NCBI RefSeq assembly: GCF_000009705.1
Contig: NC_003272.1
Span: forward strand, 3,840,001 to 3,872,000
Reading direction: 5' to 3'
Length of the DNA stretch: 32,000 bases
DNA from: Nostoc sp. PCC 7120 = FACHB-418
GTDB lineage: Bacteria; Cyanobacteriota; Cyanobacteriia; Cyanobacteriales; Nostocaceae
Of this stretch, positions 120 to 12,686 are shown piece by piece (positions within the stretch are counted from its first letter, which is position 1; each line of letters starts with the position of its first letter). Position numbers and translations under genes: made by a program. The notes beneath the pieces were generated by a model. That model ran no database searches. It was not told the DNA's origin and was given only the letters and a program-made list of their open reading frames with translations.

Positions 120-737
120 GTTGCAACACCATATAATCCCTATTAGGGATTGAAACAAGCTTTTTGCGGGATGGGGCAAGTGTGGGTGAAGTTGCAACAC
201 CATATAATCCCTATTAGGGATTGAAACCGGGCAATGCAGGAGTGCAACCCGACCAAGACCGGTTGCAACACCATATAATCCCTATTAGGGATTGAAACAA
301 GTAAAGACCTATTTTACCTAATAACCAGTCTCTACCAGCTTGGTTGCAACACCATATAATCCCTATTAGGGATTGAAACAAGTAAAGACCCAACCGACGA
401 AGCTCCTTTTTAAGAGTTGCAACACCATATAATCCCTATTAGGGATTGAAACATCATTGATTTCATACACAACTCGCACAGCTATAAGGTTGCAACACCA
501 TATAATCCCTATTAGGGATTGAAACTTGATTTCGGTTATTGCGTTATCCCTCCTAAAAGTTGCAACACCATATAATCCCTATTAGGGATTGAAACCAACG
601 ACTAGGGCATGGAGTCTAGACCAGACGGTAGTTGCAACACCATATAATCCCTATTAGGGATTGAAACCTATTTCCTGAAACGATTTAGACAAGGATCTTT
701 GTTGCAACACCATATAATCCCTATTAGGGATTGAAAC
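120..737 (+). CRISPR. CRISPR array: 9 identical 37-nt repeats GTTGCAACACCATATAATCCCTATTAGGGATTGAAAC and 8 unique spacers
   Basis: Repeats lie at 120-156, 191-227, 262-298, 343-379, 416-452, 489-525, 559-595, 631-667 and 701-737, and all are identical by eye. Spacers are 34, 34, 44, 36, 36, 33, 35 and 33 nt. The repeat has an internal palindrome (AATCCCTA-T-TAGGGATT). It ends in ATTGAAAC, the 8-nt 5'-handle type produced by Cas6 processing, so orientation is assigned to the + strand. Confidence 0.97.
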
Positions 738-7307: not shown

Positions 7308-7346
7308 GGGGGAGTAGGGAAGCAGGGGAGGCAGGGGGGAATTGTT

Positions 7347-7374
7347 GAATTTTGAACTTTGAATTTTGAATTGA
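7347..7374. repeat. STRR-type heptamer array (gaatttt gaacttt gaatttt gaattga)
   Basis: Read directly. It is flanked by the G-rich GGGAAGCAGGGGAGGCAGGGG motif, which recurs (either strand) at 8252-8275, 13283-13322 and 28728-28790. Confidence 0.75.
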
Positions 7375-7389
7375 TTCCTCCCCAATCCC

Positions 7390-8193
7390 CTACTGAAGTT
7401 TACGAGAAATCATTGGTTTGGCTACAACGTCATCCAAGCTAATACTAGTGAGTAATTTCCGCCAACGTTCTTGCATTGCTGGGTCTTGAGGATTTTTTTG
7501 CAGCATCTGAAACAGTGTGTTGGCCGCCTCGAACCAAATACCATTTTCCGCGTAGATGGCTACTTGTTGTAATGGTGATGCTGTTTCTAGTTGCTTGGTA
7601 GTTTCGGGTTTAAGCTGGACTCTTTGAACGACTCCTTCAACATAAATTGGGGGTGCTGGCTTTTGTTGGTCGCACTCTACGGTAAAAAACCAGCGATATT
7701 GCTTATCTACAGCTAAACCGACAGCATCCGCAGGCAGAGAAACGCTAATAATTCCTGGCTTGTCAGGTAGGGCGATCGCTTTTTGGTAAATAATATTTGT
7801 ATCCTGGTCTTGCAAAACAAATTCCGTCGGATAGGCAGAATCTTTGGCATACGGCACATAAAACAAGAATGTCGGATGTGCCTTTGTTGTCAATCCCCAA
7901 ACATTGGTGACTGTGGGAGCATCTTGAGTGAATGGTACTAAAGCTGTGAGTTGAGGTTCAACTGATGGGCAAGTACCCCGTTTAGCACCACCACGAACAC
8001 GCCCACCAGGACGACGTTCTGAACTAGGTAGAGGTGGTTGAGTAAAAGTAGTTTTTTTGTGAGCAGTACTTATATTGTTATTGTTATGTGGGTTAACAGG
8101 TGTTGTTGCTAATACCCAGGAATTTGCACTTAATAAACTTGTGTAGCCAATAGTTAAGGCCAATAATAGTTGGATCGGTTTTAAAGTAGACAT
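7390..8193 (-). CDS. Secreted DUF928-family protein
   Basis: From the ATG at 8193 there is a signal-peptide-like N-terminus (MSTLKPIQLLLALTIGYTSLLSA). Family-typical motifs follow: GGRVRGGAKRGTC, LTALVP, PTFLFYVP, YRWFFTVECD, VEGVVQRV and YAENGIWFEA. The track start at 8214 is TTG. Confidence 0.75.
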   Translation of the reverse strand: MSTLKPIQLLLALTIGYTSLLSANSWVLATTPVNPHNNNNISTAHKKTTFTQPPLPSSERRPGGRVRGGAKRGTCPSVEPQLTALVPFTQDAPTVTNVWGLTTKAHPTFLFYVPYAKDSAYPTEFVLQDQDTNIIYQKAIALPDKPGIISVSLPADAVGLAVDKQYRWFFTVECDQQKPAPPIYVEGVVQRVQLKPETTKQLETASPLQQVAIYAENGIWFEAANTLFQMLQKNPQDPAMQERWRKLLTSISLDDVVAKPMISRKLQ

Positions 8194-8214
8194 AGTATGT
8201 AAAACCAAATTCAA

Positions 8215-8249
8215 ATTAGTCAGTTGTCATTAGTCAGTTGTCAGTTGTC
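8215..8249. repeat. STRR heptamer array (attagtc agttgtc attagtc agttgtc agttgtc)
   Basis: Five units read directly, between the CHASE2 gene and the DUF928 gene. The reverse complement of the same two units forms the array at 11914-11955. Confidence 0.85.
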
Positions 8250-8275
8250 TTCCCCTGCTCCCTGCCCCCTGCTTC

Positions 8276-10618
8276 CTATCCCCCCTCTTCCTTGAGAAAC
8301 TTGGAATTTTGAATTGTAACTACGGTAACAGTTGATACTAGGGATAAAGCTGATGGGACAAAGGGAACCCAAAAGCCCCAAACTAGCAGACTCAGACATA
8401 ATAAATACAAAACACTAGAACTAATACCAACTGCTAATGCTAGATGAGGGAGCAAACGCCATTGCCAAGCGAGAAACCCTCCCAATCCAGCCCAAACTCC
8501 AATCCAGGCTATTTCTAACCCAGGTAGCCAAACCCTCAACAAAGACCGTCCATCTAAAACAGCACTAATAATCTGGCTAACCATGTGAGCTTGTACCATC
8601 ACTCCGGGCATTTGCTCGTCTAGAAGATGGCCGTATGGTGTAGCCCAATAGTCGGGGAAGTCGCCTCTGGCTACCACACCAATGAGTATAATCCGGTCTT
8701 TAATAGCGTTGGGATTGATAGGACTAGATAAAAGCTGGGTAAGTGTCACCTGTTCGGCGATTTTCTTGGCAGCGCGATAGTTTAGTAAGATTTGACCACC
8801 ATTGGCATCAATATTTTGATAGGCTCCCATGCGAGATGAAAGACGATGCAGTACGGTATCACCCAACTTTAAATTTTTGATGACTTCTCCAGAGGTGAAT
8901 TTTGGTTGAATGCCTAAGGATGATAGATAGCGAAATGCCAATTGAGAACTGAAGGCATAGGACGCAGAACATAACGAGGCTGTTTCTTGACTCATAAACA
9001 GGAGATGTCGCCGTACTACACCATCATCATCGTGAACAAAATCACTAAATCCCAGGCGTTCTTGGGGAATTTCTGGTGGTGATTCGATGCCTTTAATATT
9101 CTCGCTGGTATCACTGCCCTTGCATATACCAATTAAATTCTCAGTCTGTCGTAGTCGAGAGATTAACTCTGGTTGTTCGGCATGGAAATCACGATAAATA
9201 TCCAAGCCAATAGCTTTTGGTTGATACTGGGATATCCTTGCTAGGAGCAAATTCAGTGATTTCTCTGATATCGAAGTTCCTTTTAAGTACTCGTTGTTAC
9301 GGCGCTGATGAGCTAAATCTTCATCGTCAATGGTGACGATTAATATCCGGGGATCGGGGCCTTCATCGGGACGCGATCGCATCATCTGATCAAATGCTTG
9401 CAGTTCTCCAGTTTGTAAAGCGCCCAAAAACCTTAATCCATAAACGGCGGCGGTCACTAGCAAACTCGAAAATATAGTCCTTTTTAATCCGCGTTTTTTA
9501 GAGACTGGTGGGACATCATTAAATATTGGTTGGGTTGGTGGTTCTGTGAGTTCCTCCCAAGTGAGTGGCTTTTGAGCAGGATTTTGACAAATTACTGGTA
9601 GCCAAGTTGCACAGGGAAATCTATCTTCTAATCCTTGCAATCGCTCCCGTGCGTGCCGGACTGCTTGGTATAAAGATTCACCATTAGCAAAGCTGAGGAG
9701 AAAATATTTCAAAAACTCTTGGGCTACCTGATCGGGAACAGGTTCGCGCATGACGATAATCTGGGGAATGTTTAAATCAGCTAGTTCTTTTGCCAGTCCC
9801 AATCCATCACAAGAGTTGAAAATTGCTAGTTGTAAACCCCTTTCTATCGCTTGTTTCAGGGCATATTTTAATTCACCAATGCTGAGGCTATCAGTTTGAT
9901 TGAGGTAGATTCGCCCAATTCCATCATCTCCCTGACTAGAACTGTGTCCCGCGAAAAATAAAATATCCCAGCTTTTTCCCCACAGATAATCTGTTAATTC
10001 TTTGCGTTGTGGTTCTACTAAAAAGCTAACGTCCGCATTGGGACAATTTTGCAGCATTGCTTGGTCTGCTTGGGTATCAATTCCCTGACTATTACCGACA
10101 ATTGCCAAAATATTCACAGTTGGACTGGAAGTTCGGCGTTTATGAATTAGCTCATAGCTGGGTGAGGAGAGGGCAATTTCTGCCTTGGGATAGCGTTCCA
10201 GTAAATCCCAGATATGCCAAGGCAATCTTTGTAAGTGGCTATTTTCTGATTGTAAAATTACTCTGATTTCATCGGTGGGCTGTAATTTCTCCAGCCATTT
10301 TTCCCGTAAGGGTCGAAACTCTTGTGCTTGCAGCCAAGTATTAAAGCGAGCGCGGACAATTAAGGCTAACTCATGACAATCTTGAGTTACCGACACATTT
10401 GTAACTTGGATTTTGTCAGCATCTAGACGATAACCATTACCAAGCTGTAGATAGCTGGACTGCCAGCGAGAGTAGTAAAGTAAGATTTCGGGACATGGTG
10501 GGAGTTTACCTGTGATTTCCGTCGATGGGCGATCGCTTTCTTCACCAATCTGAAGAGTTACGGTAAACCCTTGCTCAAAACTACCATCTCCAAATTTTAG
10601 TACTACTAACTTTGCCAT
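8276..10618 (-). CDS. Membrane protein: N-terminal caspase-fold (CHAT/HetF-like) His-Cys domain, one TM helix, a CHASE2 domain and C-terminal TM helices
   Basis: Residue numbers follow the track translation. A candidate catalytic dyad is FFAGH(235)SS ... LAIFNSC(280)DGLGLA, encoded at nt 9944-9946 and 9809-9811. A hydrophobic helix lies at ~391-411. A CHASE2-like region spans ~425-700 (ILIVTIDDEDL..., GLDIYRDF, RIILIGV..., MPGVMVQAHMVSQI). It is followed by ~70 hydrophobic residues (705-775) and only ~15 more residues, so no kinase, cyclase or GGDEF output is present. The ATG start MAKLVVLKF is at 10618; an upstream GTG lies at 10648. Confidence 0.75.
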   Translation of the reverse strand: MAKLVVLKFGDGSFEQGFTVTLQIGEESDRPSTEITGKLPPCPEILLYYSRWQSSYLQLGNGYRLDADKIQVTNVSVTQDCHELALIVRARFNTWLQAQEFRPLREKWLEKLQPTDEIRVILQSENSHLQRLPWHIWDLLERYPKAEIALSSPSYELIHKRRTSSPTVNILAIVGNSQGIDTQADQAMLQNCPNADVSFLVEPQRKELTDYLWGKSWDILFFAGHSSSQGDDGIGRIYLNQTDSLSIGELKYALKQAIERGLQLAIFNSCDGLGLAKELADLNIPQIIVMREPVPDQVAQEFLKYFLLSFANGESLYQAVRHARERLQGLEDRFPCATWLPVICQNPAQKPLTWEELTEPPTQPIFNDVPPVSKKRGLKRTIFSSLLVTAAVYGLRFLGALQTGELQAFDQMMRSRPDEGPDPRILIVTIDDEDLAHQRRNNEYLKGTSISEKSLNLLLARISQYQPKAIGLDIYRDFHAEQPELISRLRQTENLIGICKGSDTSENIKGIESPPEIPQERLGFSDFVHDDDGVVRRHLLFMSQETASLCSASYAFSSQLAFRYLSSLGIQPKFTSGEVIKNLKLGDTVLHRLSSRMGAYQNIDANGGQILLNYRAAKKIAEQVTLTQLLSSPINPNAIKDRIILIGVVARGDFPDYWATPYGHLLDEQMPGVMVQAHMVSQIISAVLDGRSLLRVWLPGLEIAWIGVWAGLGGFLAWQWRLLPHLALAVGISSSVLYLLCLSLLVWGFWVPFVPSALSLVSTVTVVTIQNSKFLKEEGG

Positions 10619-10782
10619 GACTGCCGTTTTGCTCCGATTCCCCACCACTGGAGTTCTGATTTACTCAATTTTTTACAAATCAGCAATTCCAGCCCAGTTT
10701 ACTTGAAGTTCCTACATATAAATAATTTAGTTACTTATTGGTATTTACTTATTACCAATTACATAGTAAAAATCTGGTTGCT

Positions 10783-11751
10783 TTAAATTACAAAGCTCTC
10801 TGTAATACTCATATCATCTAATGCGACCTGAACGCTGAACTGTTCCTGAATTTCCCCACGAAATTGTAGTTGTAGGTAGTTGTCAGCACTCCTGGCTTGA
10901 GCTTCTAGAAATACTGCGCCGGAGGTGTCTATTACTGTCAGTTTTACTCCTGCCGGTAGATGTATTTGATTACCTGTGGAGTGTAGTTGCAGACGGACAC
11001 TAGTTTGTCCGTTAGCTTCAGGTGCAATTTCCACAATCAACATCACTGGTTGGTCAACTATTTTGATCCCCAAATCAATGAGTTTTGCCCGTCTGGTAAC
11101 GGCTTCTGCTTGATTAAAAGCTGTATCTGGAGTGCTTACAGGACTACGAAAGCCATAAGCCGGTTTAGCTTCCAGCGAGTTCCACAAAGTTTCTACTGTT
11201 TGCCAACCAGCTTCACACTGCCCGACAAACCACTGACTCAAATTCACCAAAGCATCCACAGGAGAAGTTTTCAGTTGCTCTAGGCGATCGATCAATGCTT
11301 CTATAGGTTGTAGTTGATTTAGAGGTAATGTTTCTTGATTAACTTTTTTAGTAAAACCTAGTAATTTAGCTTCTGTATTGGTTTCATCAACCTGTACAAT
11401 TACATAACCGACTCTTTCGTCCCAAGTTTCTGGGGGAACAGAACATACCTGCTCATGCATCTGAACAGGACGGCACTCTAAACGACCAACTGAGGGAACT
11501 TCTAGATCAGCTACATCTCCACATAACTGCATTAATGGGTTCCAACTGTCACTAGCGATCAAATTAGTCGGAACTTCCATCATTTGCAAATAATCATTTA
11601 CCACTGACACAGCCAAAGTATTGAGCCTAACTTGCTCGGCTTTTTGGGAATTAGGCTGTCTGTTGGCGAACTCCTGGGCAGCAAATCGAGCTGCTTGAGT
11701 AATTGGTAGTGTGATGGCGAAATCGTCTAGCTGGTTGGTAGTGTTAGTCAT
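10783..11751 (-). CDS. DUF1822-family protein
   Basis: The N-terminal pattern is as I remember it for cyanobacterial DUF1822: ...AARFAAQEFANRQPNSQKAEQVRLNTLAVSVVNDYLQMMEVPTNL..SDSWNP...DVADLEVPSVGRLECRP. 322 aa, ATG start. Confidence 0.65.
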   Translation of the reverse strand: MTNTTNQLDDFAITLPITQAARFAAQEFANRQPNSQKAEQVRLNTLAVSVVNDYLQMMEVPTNLIASDSWNPLMQLCGDVADLEVPSVGRLECRPVQMHEQVCSVPPETWDERVGYVIVQVDETNTEAKLLGFTKKVNQETLPLNQLQPIEALIDRLEQLKTSPVDALVNLSQWFVGQCEAGWQTVETLWNSLEAKPAYGFRSPVSTPDTAFNQAEAVTRRAKLIDLGIKIVDQPVMLIVEIAPEANGQTSVRLQLHSTGNQIHLPAGVKLTVIDTSGAVFLEAQARSADNYLQLQFRGEIQEQFSVQVALDDMSITESFVI

Positions 11752-11913
11752 AGTTCAATCCCCAGTGATCAATGCTGCTATATACATATCGCCCGCATTC
11801 ACTAAATTTATGCCACAAAACGCAAAAAAATCAGCGAAATTTTCAGGACTGTTTATCAGTCAGTTGGTATTTATTTTCTTGCACCAGTTGAGGAGGCAGG
11901 GGGAAGAGATATA

Positions 11914-11955
11914 CTGACCACTGACTAATGACAACTGACAACTGACTAATGACGA
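11914..11955. repeat. STRR heptamer array (ctgacca ctgacta atgacaa ctgacaa ctgacta atgacga)
   Basis: Six units read directly. The last unit contains the ATG of rsmG (11949). It is an inverted copy of the unit family at 8215-8249. Confidence 0.85.
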
Positions 11956-12686
11956 ACTTATTGCCAGAAATGGCTGAAATTTGGCAGCAAACTCTCAATT
12001 GGCAACCAACAGACTCTCAACAGGCGCGATTTCAGCAGCTTTATGAGTTAATTCTGGAAGGTAATCGCCAGTTAAACTTAACTCGCATCACTGAACCTCA
12101 AGAGTTTTGGGAAAAACATCTTTGGGATTCGCTGCGAGGAGTTGCACCACAGCAACAATTAATCTCTTCTCTTCAACTGGGTGCATCTGTTATTGATATT
12201 GGCACTGGTGCTGGGTTTCCTGGTGTTCCCGTGGCAATTATTGCCTCTAATTCTACAATTACGCTGGTGGATTCAACGCGCAAAAAGATTACTTTTATCG
12301 ACACTATCTTGAGCGAACTAGCTCTAACTAATGCCAAAACTCTGGTTAGTAGGGCAGAAGAAATTGGTCAACAACCACAGCATCGAGAACAATATGATGT
12401 TGCTTTGATTCGTGCGGTCGGCACTGCTTCGCCTTGTGCAGAATATACTTTACCTTTACTAAAGTTAGGTGGTTTGGCTGTAATTTATCGTGGTACTTGG
12501 ACTGAAGAAGAAACTACATCTGTGGAAAATGCAGCGCAGCAGTTAGGTGGCACAGTTGAATTAATAGACAACTTTACTACTCCCTTAACTAACAGCGTTC
12601 GCCACTGTCTTTACTTACGGAAAGTAGCTAAAACACCAGCTAATTTTCCCCGTGCTGTTGGTGTACCCAGTCAAAAGCCTATTTAG
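11949..12686 (+). CDS. rsmG: 16S rRNA (guanine527-N7)-methyltransferase RsmG (GidB)
   Basis: Motifs NLTRITEPQEFWEKHLWDSL and the SAM-binding VIDIGTGAGFPGVPVAI. Length is typical for the family. Confidence 0.9.
   Translation: MTNLLPEMAEIWQQTLNWQPTDSQQARFQQLYELILEGNRQLNLTRITEPQEFWEKHLWDSLRGVAPQQQLISSLQLGASVIDIGTGAGFPGVPVAIIASNSTITLVDSTRKKITFIDTILSELALTNAKTLVSRAEEIGQQPQHREQYDVALIRAVGTASPCAEYTLPLLKLGGLAVIYRGTWTEEETTSVENAAQQLGGTVELIDNFTTPLTNSVRHCLYLRKVAKTPANFPRAVGVPSQKPI

Follow-up and report, generated by a model that had tools for sequence, protein, structure and literature searches.

Sensor-coupled caspase-fold proteases of bacteria are regarded as precursors of the apoptotic and immune signalling of eukaryotes, and to our knowledge few of them have been worked out, namely Craspase, SAVED-CHAT and DdvA. 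The present analysis concerns a candidate of this kind, a gene trio from Nostoc sp. PCC 7120 = FACHB-418 lying in a window of 32,000 nt (the whole stretch of DNA analysed: assembly GCF_000009705.1, contig NC_003272.1, positions 3,840,001-3,872,000 of the forward strand). Open reading frame (ORF) calling in the window places the three genes on the minus strand, at 11751-10783, 10618-8276 and 8193-7390, just as an earlier sequence-only reading of the same DNA had put them. They encode a DUF1822 protein, a transmembrane (TM) receptor joining a predicted CHAT protease domain to a CHASE2 sensor, and a DUF928 protein, and all Pfam domain matches of the trio stand far above chance expectation. The trio is real and widely conserved; it was already catalogued computationally in 2021, and the locus does not represent a novel type of system. 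What is new, and most valuable, is that DUF928 pairs with CHASE2 regardless of the output domain.

The closest described systems are those of Kaur, Iyer, Burroughs and Aravind (2021, eLife; PMC8195603), who defined genes of the form 'EACC2 + caspase + variable C-terminus', with CHASE2 among the variants, and tied them to genes for DUF1822 and for extracytoplasmic function (ECF) sigma factors, the sigma gene being present in the majority of neighbourhoods. Their supplement holds the architecture EACC2+CASPASE+CHASE2+TM+TM as well as a Fischerella neighbourhood with the gene order found here plus a TPR-caspase gene (PMC8195603), and an unnamed 'TM+beta_rich+TPRs' gene of that listing stands where DUF928 does. 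The Nostoc locus shares with these systems the constant alpha+beta domain and caspase fold, the variable C-terminus and the DUF1822 neighbour (164 bp upstream here), and it belongs to the EACC2-caspase + DUF1822 (+ ECF sigma) systems already predicted computationally; residues 1-111 of the receptor are equated with 'EACC2' on the basis of a structural model. It differs in that the window has neither the ECF sigma gene nor the TPR-caspase gene, and DUF928 is neither named nor discussed in the text or supplements of that paper. The sequence-only reading had known of no experimental function for the trio arrangement, and the literature searched indeed held no experimental study of DUF1822, DUF928, CHASE2+CHAT or sll1891, but the arrangement as such had been catalogued by Kaur et al. 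(2021).

Two further systems link a CHAT fold to sigma factor control. In Craspase, Csx29 is the CHAT protease, and its substrate Csx30 is a binding partner of the sigma factor RpoE (PMC9825189). Csx29 is the best structural match of the protease domain described here, and related loci pair a CHAT protein, DUF1822 and a sigma-like gene; the differences are an identity of ~11%, a receptor without a TPR arm and anchored in the membrane, a DUF1822 protein without detectable similarity to Csx30, and a trigger that would be a periplasmic cue read via CHASE2 instead of target RNA bound by Cas7-11. In the DdvA/DdvS system of Myxococcus xanthus, a transmembrane TPR-CHAT anti-sigma factor is proposed to undergo signal-induced autoproteolysis, DdvA combining a periplasmic CHAT domain with an incomplete His-Cys site and a cytoplasmic zinc anti-sigma domain (PMC11506125). 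The likeness lies in a single-pass membrane protein that joins the CHAT fold to ECF sigma control and that appears among the Foldseek matches; the topology, however, is inverted, the CHAT domain here being predicted to be cytoplasmic, with its dyad intact and invariant. The periplasmic part of DdvA is closer to the exported TPR-CHAT neighbours of related loci than to the receptor, and a DdvA-type anti-sigma identity of the receptor was rejected, the CHAT domain lying on the cytoplasmic side, ahead of the first TM helix.

The design logic of the receptor has a counterpart in the metacaspase (C14)-CHASE2 protein of Trichodesmium erythraeum, whose N-terminal, cytoplasmic caspase-fold protease precedes a single TM helix, the CHASE2 domain and then three further TM helices (Asplund-Samuelsson et al., 2012; PMC3501461); that protein carries Peptidase_C14 rather than CHAT, and no DUF1822/DUF928 context is reported there. 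Canonical CHASE2 receptors, as Zhulin et al. (2003) are cited in PMC8195603 and PMC3501461, are kinases, cyclases and GGDEF proteins. They resemble the present receptor in having CHASE2 with flanking TM helices, and DUF928 accompanies CHASE2-histidine kinases too; they differ from it in that its predicted output is proteolytic and N-terminal, with no output at the C-terminus.

Partners of the sensor and of the protease

Residues 1-380 of the receptor have 1,817 database relatives, the top 120 of which are 50-77% identical over ~94% of the query, yet end in unrelated C-termini. The C-termini found among the relatives comprise CHASE2, PsbP-like, DUF8082, TPR, TIR, Macro, STAND/AAA NTPases, NfeD and pentapeptide repeats, and residues 1-380 are hence best described as a 'constant' module (alpha+beta domain plus CHAT) followed by a variable C-terminus. 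A census with one genome per species comprised at least 596 encoded relatives of this N-terminal module, of which the best 80 loci were analysed, drawn from Nostoc, Calothrix, Tolypothrix, Fischerella, Fortiea, Scytonema, Chroococcidiopsis, Oscillatoria, Moorena, Caldora, Leptolyngbyaceae, Pseudanabaena, Waterburya and others. Co-occurrence was counted over 66 focal genes with a CHASE2 C-terminus.

Among these, DUF1822 lies within 3 kb of the CHAT-CHASE2 gene in 60 of the 64 evaluable loci and directly upstream on the same strand in 53/64, DUF928 follows directly downstream in 54 of 59, and the full trio is present in 50/58 evaluable loci spanning several cyanobacterial orders; the linkage of the three families that the sequence-only reading had proposed to look for in other genomes is conserved. 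The median gaps in relatives are 153 bp on the DUF1822 side and 76 bp on the DUF928 side, and in some genomes the CHAT-CHASE2 and DUF928 genes overlap (minimum gap -47 bp).

The two partners part company once the sensor changes. Next to the focal genes without CHASE2 (n=7), DUF1822 was found in 4/7 and DUF928 in 0/7, and five further non-CHASE2 variants, looked up independently, gave 2/5 and 0/5, so that DUF928 adjoins none of the 12 non-CHASE2 variants. From the counts with CHASE2 and non-CHASE2 variants it follows that DUF1822 tracks the protease and DUF928 tracks CHASE2.

Further loci join CHASE2 to a range of outputs. Since a homology search with a divergent DUF928 returned only 3 proteins, the wider DUF928 census rests on 17 annotated plasmid loci; a single-protein metagenome scan gave one 1.5-kb contig. 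In 13 of the 17, a CHASE2 protein adjoins the divergent DUF928 (24-42% identical), and the outputs beside it are varied: an N-terminal CHAT domain; a C-terminal histidine kinase with an adjacent response regulator (Gloeothece, Aulosira, Nostoc flagelliforme); an N-terminal triple TIR (Kovacikia); a stand-alone CHASE2 protein next to a TIR protein (Calothrix 336/3); and a CHASE2 protein placed after a STAS, anti-sigma kinase and PP2C partner-switching set (Nostoc NIES-3756). DUF1822 keeps to the protease module; DUF928 stays with CHASE2 regardless of whether the output is CHAT, histidine kinase or TIR, and this gives good grounds for regarding DUF928 as the sensor's partner and not the protease's. 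The pattern fits the division foreseen by the sequence-only reading, with DUF928 on the sensor side and DUF1822 on the protease side. No discussion of the DUF928-CHASE2 pairing was found in the literature; a CHASE2 gene beside a DUF928 gene in N. punctiforme is mentioned in passing (PMC5587647).

Several individual loci deserve separate mention. On plasmid pB of Kovacikia minuta (L108:1624-4773), a 1049-aa protein with three N-terminal TIR domains and a C-terminal CHASE2 is encoded divergently to DUF928; here too an effector at the N-terminus is coupled to CHASE2 at the C-terminus, the second such case. On a plasmid of Nostoc sp. NIES-3756 (L104:1360-5621), genes for a STAS antagonist, an anti-sigma kinase-like ATPase and PP2C precede a 499-aa CHASE2 protein and DUF928, and a partner-switching module appears to be wired to the CHASE2/DUF928 pair. 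Several Nostoc genomes (L021, L023, L024, L031 and L032) hold two paralogous modules arranged divergently, back to back. In Tolypothrix sp. FACHB-123 (L007:10001-12345), the CHAT-CHASE2 gene is broken into ORFs of 465 and 296 aa, probably by a frameshift or as a pseudogene. Finally, a 13.7-kb metagenome contig (L098) carries four N-module (CHAT) genes, whose C-termini are absent, TIR or PsbP, interleaved with pentapeptide-repeat genes and flanked by two DUF1822 genes, COP23 and a trypsin-WD40 gene.

Predicted structure and topology of the three proteins

Table 1. Features of the trio locus, in window coordinates; domain functions and topology are predictions.
Feature	Position	Strand	Basis
DUF1822 gene, 322 aa	10783..11751	-	Pfam PF08852, E=2e-89, 300.6 bits against a cutoff of 25
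Gap between DUF1822 and CHAT-CHASE2 genes, 164 bp	10619..10782	-	Weak imperfect repeats only
Receptor-protease gene, 780 aa: EACC2-like + CHAT + TM + CHASE2 + 3 TM	8276..10618	-	Pfam CHAT, CHASE2
N-terminal alpha+beta domain, residues 1-111, equated with 'EACC2'	10286..10618	-	AlphaFold2 model; conservation alongside CHAT
CHAT / caspase-hemoglobinase-fold protease domain (predicted), residues ~112-350	9569..10285	-	Pfam CHAT, Foldseek, conserved dyad
First TM helix, residues ~381-401	9416..9478	-	Hydropathy peak 1.59
CHASE2 sensor region, predicted periplasmic, residues ~402-700	8519..9415	-	Pfam PF05226
C-terminal hydrophobic block, residues ~701-769, read as three TM helices	8312..8518	-	Hydropathy
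Gap between CHAT-CHASE2 and DUF928 genes, 82 bp	8194..8275	-	7/14-nt tandem repeats throughout
DUF928 gene, 267 aa	7390..8193	-	Pfam PF06051, E=1.6e-65, 220.8 bits against a cutoff of 26

The middle ORF can be read from a GTG at 10648 (790 aa) or from the ATG at 10618 (780 aa), and the latter is favoured, both by the identical protein so called in public assemblies and by the homologue consensus start 'MxKLVVLK'. In this numbering the catalytic dyad is His225 (nt 9944-9946, motif ILFFAGHSS) and Cys270 (nt 9809-9811, motif LAIFNSCDGLGLA), the H235 and C280 of the sequence-only reading, whose caspase/CHAT-style pair is confirmed in coordinates and motifs. The CHAT family itself (Pfam PF12770) matches residues 102-333 at E=6.9e-14 and 52.4 bits, its cutoff being 24.

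An AlphaFold2 (AF2) model of residues 1-380, built from a 37-sequence alignment, reached a predicted local distance difference test score (pLDDT) of 87.3 and a predicted template modelling score (pTM) of 0.85. It consists of a sheet-and-helix domain (residues 1-111), an alpha/beta domain (~112-350) and a disordered linker towards the membrane, the first of these being formed by strands in 3-39 and helices in 44-111, with pLDDT mostly >90 except in the loop 63-73. When the protease model was compared with the PDB by Foldseek, Csx29 came out best (8eey_B, E=5e-11), SAVED-CHAT, the human, worm and yeast separases and DdvA (8rot_A, E=1.8e-7) were further top matches, and Dronc, MALT1, caspase-3/6, metacaspase-9 and legumain followed lower down. 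With CHAT proteases on top, the peptidase fold suggested by the sequence-only reading is recovered, and the N-terminal region can be confidently modelled as a CHAT/caspase peptidase fold. In this model H225 stands directly after beta-strand 219-224 and C270 directly after beta-strand 264-269, a predicted placement that is the canonical clan-CD arrangement.

Conservation points in the same direction. Both residues of the dyad are invariant in 82/82 genome-derived homologues, an outcome of the orthologue comparison called for earlier, and G224, N268, S269 and G272 around them are likewise invariant. The alignment profile of the N-terminal module had no match among PDB sequences at E<=1, and the equivalence of the catalytic residues is therefore read from fold and position only. 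A further near-invariant residue, Arg64 (nt 10427-10429; 80/82 homologues), lies in the sole disordered loop (63-73) of the N-terminal domain, and the model makes this loop a candidate autoprocessing site.

CHASE2 (PF05226) matches residues 389-714 with E=2.5e-63, covering model positions 3-256 of 257. The first TM helix (hydropathy peak at 382-400) is preceded by KKRGLKR, with five Lys/Arg, and since the CHAT domain lies N-terminal to it, on the positively charged side, the domain is predicted to be cytoplasmic, in keeping with the topology assigned to it by the sequence-only reading. Hydropathy peaks in the C-terminal block fall at 698-716 and 728-746, with more up to 769. The protein ends at residue 780, 11 residues past the last hydrophobic segment and not ~15 as had been estimated; the earlier observation that it has no C-terminal output domain holds.

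DUF928 has a hydrophobic, signal-peptide-like N-terminus (nt ~8107-8193), as had been noted before, and the same is true of 61/66 DUF928 homologues. Together with two family-wide conserved cysteines, Cys75 (7969-7971) and Cys174 (7672-7674), this would fit an exported, disulfide-bonded protein. A comparison of DUF928 with the PDB by sequence returned nothing meaningful.

DUF1822 shows no TM-like segment by hydropathy, which is consistent with the cytoplasmic location proposed for it earlier. Its AF2 model (pLDDT 72) begins with helices, continues with a mixed beta region and closes with an immunoglobulin-like (Ig-like) sandwich at the C-terminus; a sequence comparison with the PDB gave nothing meaningful, and Foldseek of the model retrieved generic Ig-like sandwiches only, matching the C-terminal ~100 residues. 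As modelled, the protein is beta-rich and does not look like the 'TPR protein' of Kaur et al.'s wording. The same authors assigned to some DUF1822 proteins a TRADD-N domain, an RRM-like alpha+beta sandwich whose beta2-beta3 turn carries a conserved 'uS' motif (PMC8195603). In the present protein there was no Pfam TRADD_N match and no TRADD-N structure in the Foldseek top 50 obtained with the pLDDT 72 model; the single family-wide conserved Ser, S69 (context 'sdSW'), is a candidate for the 'uS' motif, the TRADD-N domain itself not being confirmed.

Larger clusters and the layout of the locus

Related loci commonly hold additional genes. A ~216-aa protein (F0) without a Pfam or NCBIfam family match is encoded directly upstream of DUF1822 or F1 in 27 loci; F1, a TPR-CHAT protein of ~900 aa, exported in view of its clear N-terminal signal peptide, lies within 9 kb in 21/58 loci; F2, a ~396-aa protein of the sigma-70/ECF superfamily (TIGR02937, E=5e-28), occurs in 13 loci, always with a longer DUF1822 of ~393 aa; and two-partner secretion (TPS) proteins with a filamentous-haemagglutinin N-terminal domain (F9) are found within 9 kb in 7/58. 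F0 or a sigma gene lies within 9 kb in 33/58 loci. On plasmids, sigma-family proteins of 365-522 aa (TIGR02937, ~1e-12) are encoded ahead of DUF1822 genes of ~385-425 aa. Each type of sigma protein thus has its own DUF1822 size class, a correlation that suggests an interaction between sigma and DUF1822. F0 carries a region-2-like motif and a C-terminal helix-turn-helix (HTH), and its scores are low throughout: hhalign against the sigma family gave 2.6% probability, a faint Sigma70_r2 appeared in 4/25, the PDB profile search reached RpoE at E=0.45, and NCBIfam gave no match. It is possibly a divergent sigma or HTH protein.

The fullest relatives have five genes, in which F0, exported TPR-CHAT, DUF1822, CHAT-CHASE2 and DUF928 are combined (L012, L014, L016, L020, L022, L025, L029, L038 and others; example coordinates are L022:2037-2687 and L016:2058-4787). 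The flank downstream of the window trio (hexapeptide transferase and GT2 genes) is common to L008, L036 and L038; a TPR-CHAT gene stands ahead of DUF1822 in L036 and L038, with F0 additionally in L038, and in the window the same position is occupied by rsmG. Given this synteny, the presence of rsmG at the site of the extra genes and the lack of any F0, F1 or F2 homologue in the window, the locus is the core of three genes left after trimming of an ancestral cluster of five. A neighbouring sigma gene is typical of the EACC2-caspase family but not obligatory.

Within the trio, the gaps have the 164 and 82 bp that the sequence-only reading gave them, and its description of both as repeat-filled applies to one. 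The 82-bp gap is filled with tandem repeats, arrays being detected by Tandem Repeats Finder (TRF) at 8215-8283, with an exact 14-nt duplication, and a sequence scan found no terminator in it; the 164-bp gap has no repeat above the TRF threshold, only weak imperfect ones, and the scan found neither a terminator-like site nor a notable promoter-like site. Rfam and tRNA scans gave no match inside the trio locus.

Cyanobacterial tandem heptamers of the short tandemly repeated repetitive (STRR) type flank the module and lie within it, in intergenic positions at 7317-7372, 8215-8283 and 11913-11958, the unit ACTGACA/GTCAGTT being present at two of the three sites. Further away, the window contains a CRISPR array at 120-737 (+) with nine 37-nt repeats (Rfam CRISPR-DR5, 54 bits each), which may run past the left window edge; it lies ~6.6 kb from the DUF928 gene, with AraC-like, DCC1-like, CobU and GT2 genes between, and has no evident link to the module.

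Signalling route, competing explanations and meaning

Taken together, fold, dyad, topology and linkage lend computational support to the periplasm-gated intracellular protease module that the sequence-only reading had proposed; of its refuting conditions, the three examined (a non-peptidase fold, a His/Cys pair that varies, missing linkage in other genomes) all came out in its favour. We infer the proteolytic activity, signal, substrate and co-transcription of this module, and regard it as an evenly balanced proposition that the trio is a signalling module conserved in cyanobacteria, with a transmembrane receptor-protease at its centre, in which a periplasmic cue would lead through proteolysis to a sigma-dependent response. 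CHASE2 and DUF928 would jointly read a periplasmic or envelope cue, upon which the receptor would change its conformation or oligomeric state; the cytoplasmic CHAT protease would thereby be switched on and would cleave either DUF1822 directly or, beforehand, its own N-terminal domain at the disordered Arg64 loop; and DUF1822, acting like Csx30 or an anti-sigma factor, would release or alter a sigma factor and so evoke a transcriptional response. This route, drawn by analogy with Craspase-Csx30-RpoE, is the most likely mechanism. Because the window holds no sigma gene, the sigma factor would be encoded elsewhere in the genome, or the protease would have other targets.

A number of points weigh against this reading. 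The proposed output is absent in cis, no sigma-like gene occurring anywhere in the 32-kb window, and F0, the commonest small neighbour in related loci, is not shown to be a sigma factor by hhalign, Pfam, NCBIfam or PDB comparison. DUF1822 has no detectable similarity to anti-sigma factors, Csx30 or any solved structure, and confidence in its AF2 model is no more than moderate. Scans of both gaps for promoters and terminators were uninformative, performing no better than on shuffled sequence; the choice of the best 80 loci biases the census towards close relatives; and transcript, biochemical or genetic data on the module were not found in the literature.

The main rival, which we hold to be a possible but clearly less probable account, is a role in conflict or abortive infection, with CHAT as a death effector that would degrade cell proteins once CHASE2/DUF928 senses an envelope attack by a phage or a competitor's toxin, and with DUF1822, the TRADD-N-like adaptor of Kaur et al., keeping the protease inactive. 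The constant effector with hypervariable sensor C-termini, including TIR, STAND NTPase and Macro fusions, argues for it, as do the many paralogues per genome and the N-module gene arrays, the frequent location on plasmids near transposases and Uma2 genes, the TIR-CHASE2 protein with DUF928 on the Kovacikia plasmid, and the view of Kaur et al. that these systems serve immunity or apoptosis (PMC8195603). On the other side, the window copy is chromosomal and its flank of housekeeping-type genes is kept across genera, and the recurrent sigma partner suggests a transcriptional rather than a suicidal output. No model of PADLOC-DB v2 matched the three window proteins at E<=0.01, and membership of a catalogued PADLOC defence system was rejected accordingly.

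The frequent exported TPR-CHAT and TPS genes, combined with the DUF928-CHASE2 pairing, hint at a protease relay across the membrane, an extension of the signalling reading that we put forward tentatively and with more doubt than the conflict account. In such a two-caspase relay, the exported CHAT protein would act on or with DUF928, CHASE2 would read the result, the cytoplasmic CHAT domain would cleave DUF1822, and sigma would be released; DUF928 would then be a dedicated periplasmic co-receptor or a processed ligand of CHASE2 domains generally. The same neighbours allow a different and rather unlikely explanation, namely that DUF928, exported TPR-CHAT and the CHASE2 receptor are TPS accessories that survey or process an exoprotein resembling filamentous haemagglutinin; the CHAT domain in the cytoplasm would then report no more than secretion or contact status, and the window copy would be an orphaned remnant. 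In addition to the exported TPR-CHAT (21/58 loci) and TPS genes (7/58) within 9 kb, the plasmids speak for it, a large CHAT protein standing beside DUF928 in 14/17 and TPS, FhaC or haemagglutinin genes in ~9/17; yet most trio loci have no TPS gene within 9 kb, and the window copy and several relatives keep an intact trio and invariant catalytic residues with no TPS or TPR-CHAT gene nearby.

Heterocyst formation and cell division in the Nostocales involve HetF, a CHAT-domain protease, and the receptor, as a predicted CHAT-domain cysteine protease from the same organisms, recalls it. The sequence-only reading had drawn this comparison, and a Nostoc/Anabaena-type host and a weak local NCBIfam HetF match would agree with a developmental protease for heterocyst patterning or cell division. 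HetF orthology was nonetheless rejected: the equivalog NF045509 scores 25.1 bits against a cutoff of 1200, local to residues 190-320, the architecture and taxonomic spread differ, and the module also occurs in the non-heterocystous Oscillatoria, Moorena, Pseudanabaena, Chroococcidiopsis, Leptolyngbyaceae and Picosynechococcus, which makes a HetF-like role highly improbable. The N-terminal module of the receptor is a predicted CHAT protease and not a HetF orthologue. That the adjacent genes are three unrelated ones, or that the middle protein is a scaffold without catalytic activity, is just as hard to credit, for although direct transcript evidence is lacking and 164 bp precede the middle gene, order and orientation are the same in 50/58 loci from several cyanobacterial orders, and the dyad of H225 and C270 is invariant, along with the motifs around it, in 82/82.

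For the organism, the signalling module favoured here offers a compact, chromosomally stable three-gene example in Nostoc/Anabaena-type strains, and as the protease is predicted to lie inside and the sensor outside, each with its own candidate partner, sensing and output should be separately dissectable. For the sensor family, the significance may be wider. We know of no ligand of CHASE2, nor was one found in the literature searched, and DUF928 is a concrete candidate for this missing input. If the relay were true, it would provide the first defined input for CHASE2 and a new type of proteolytic trans-envelope signalling.

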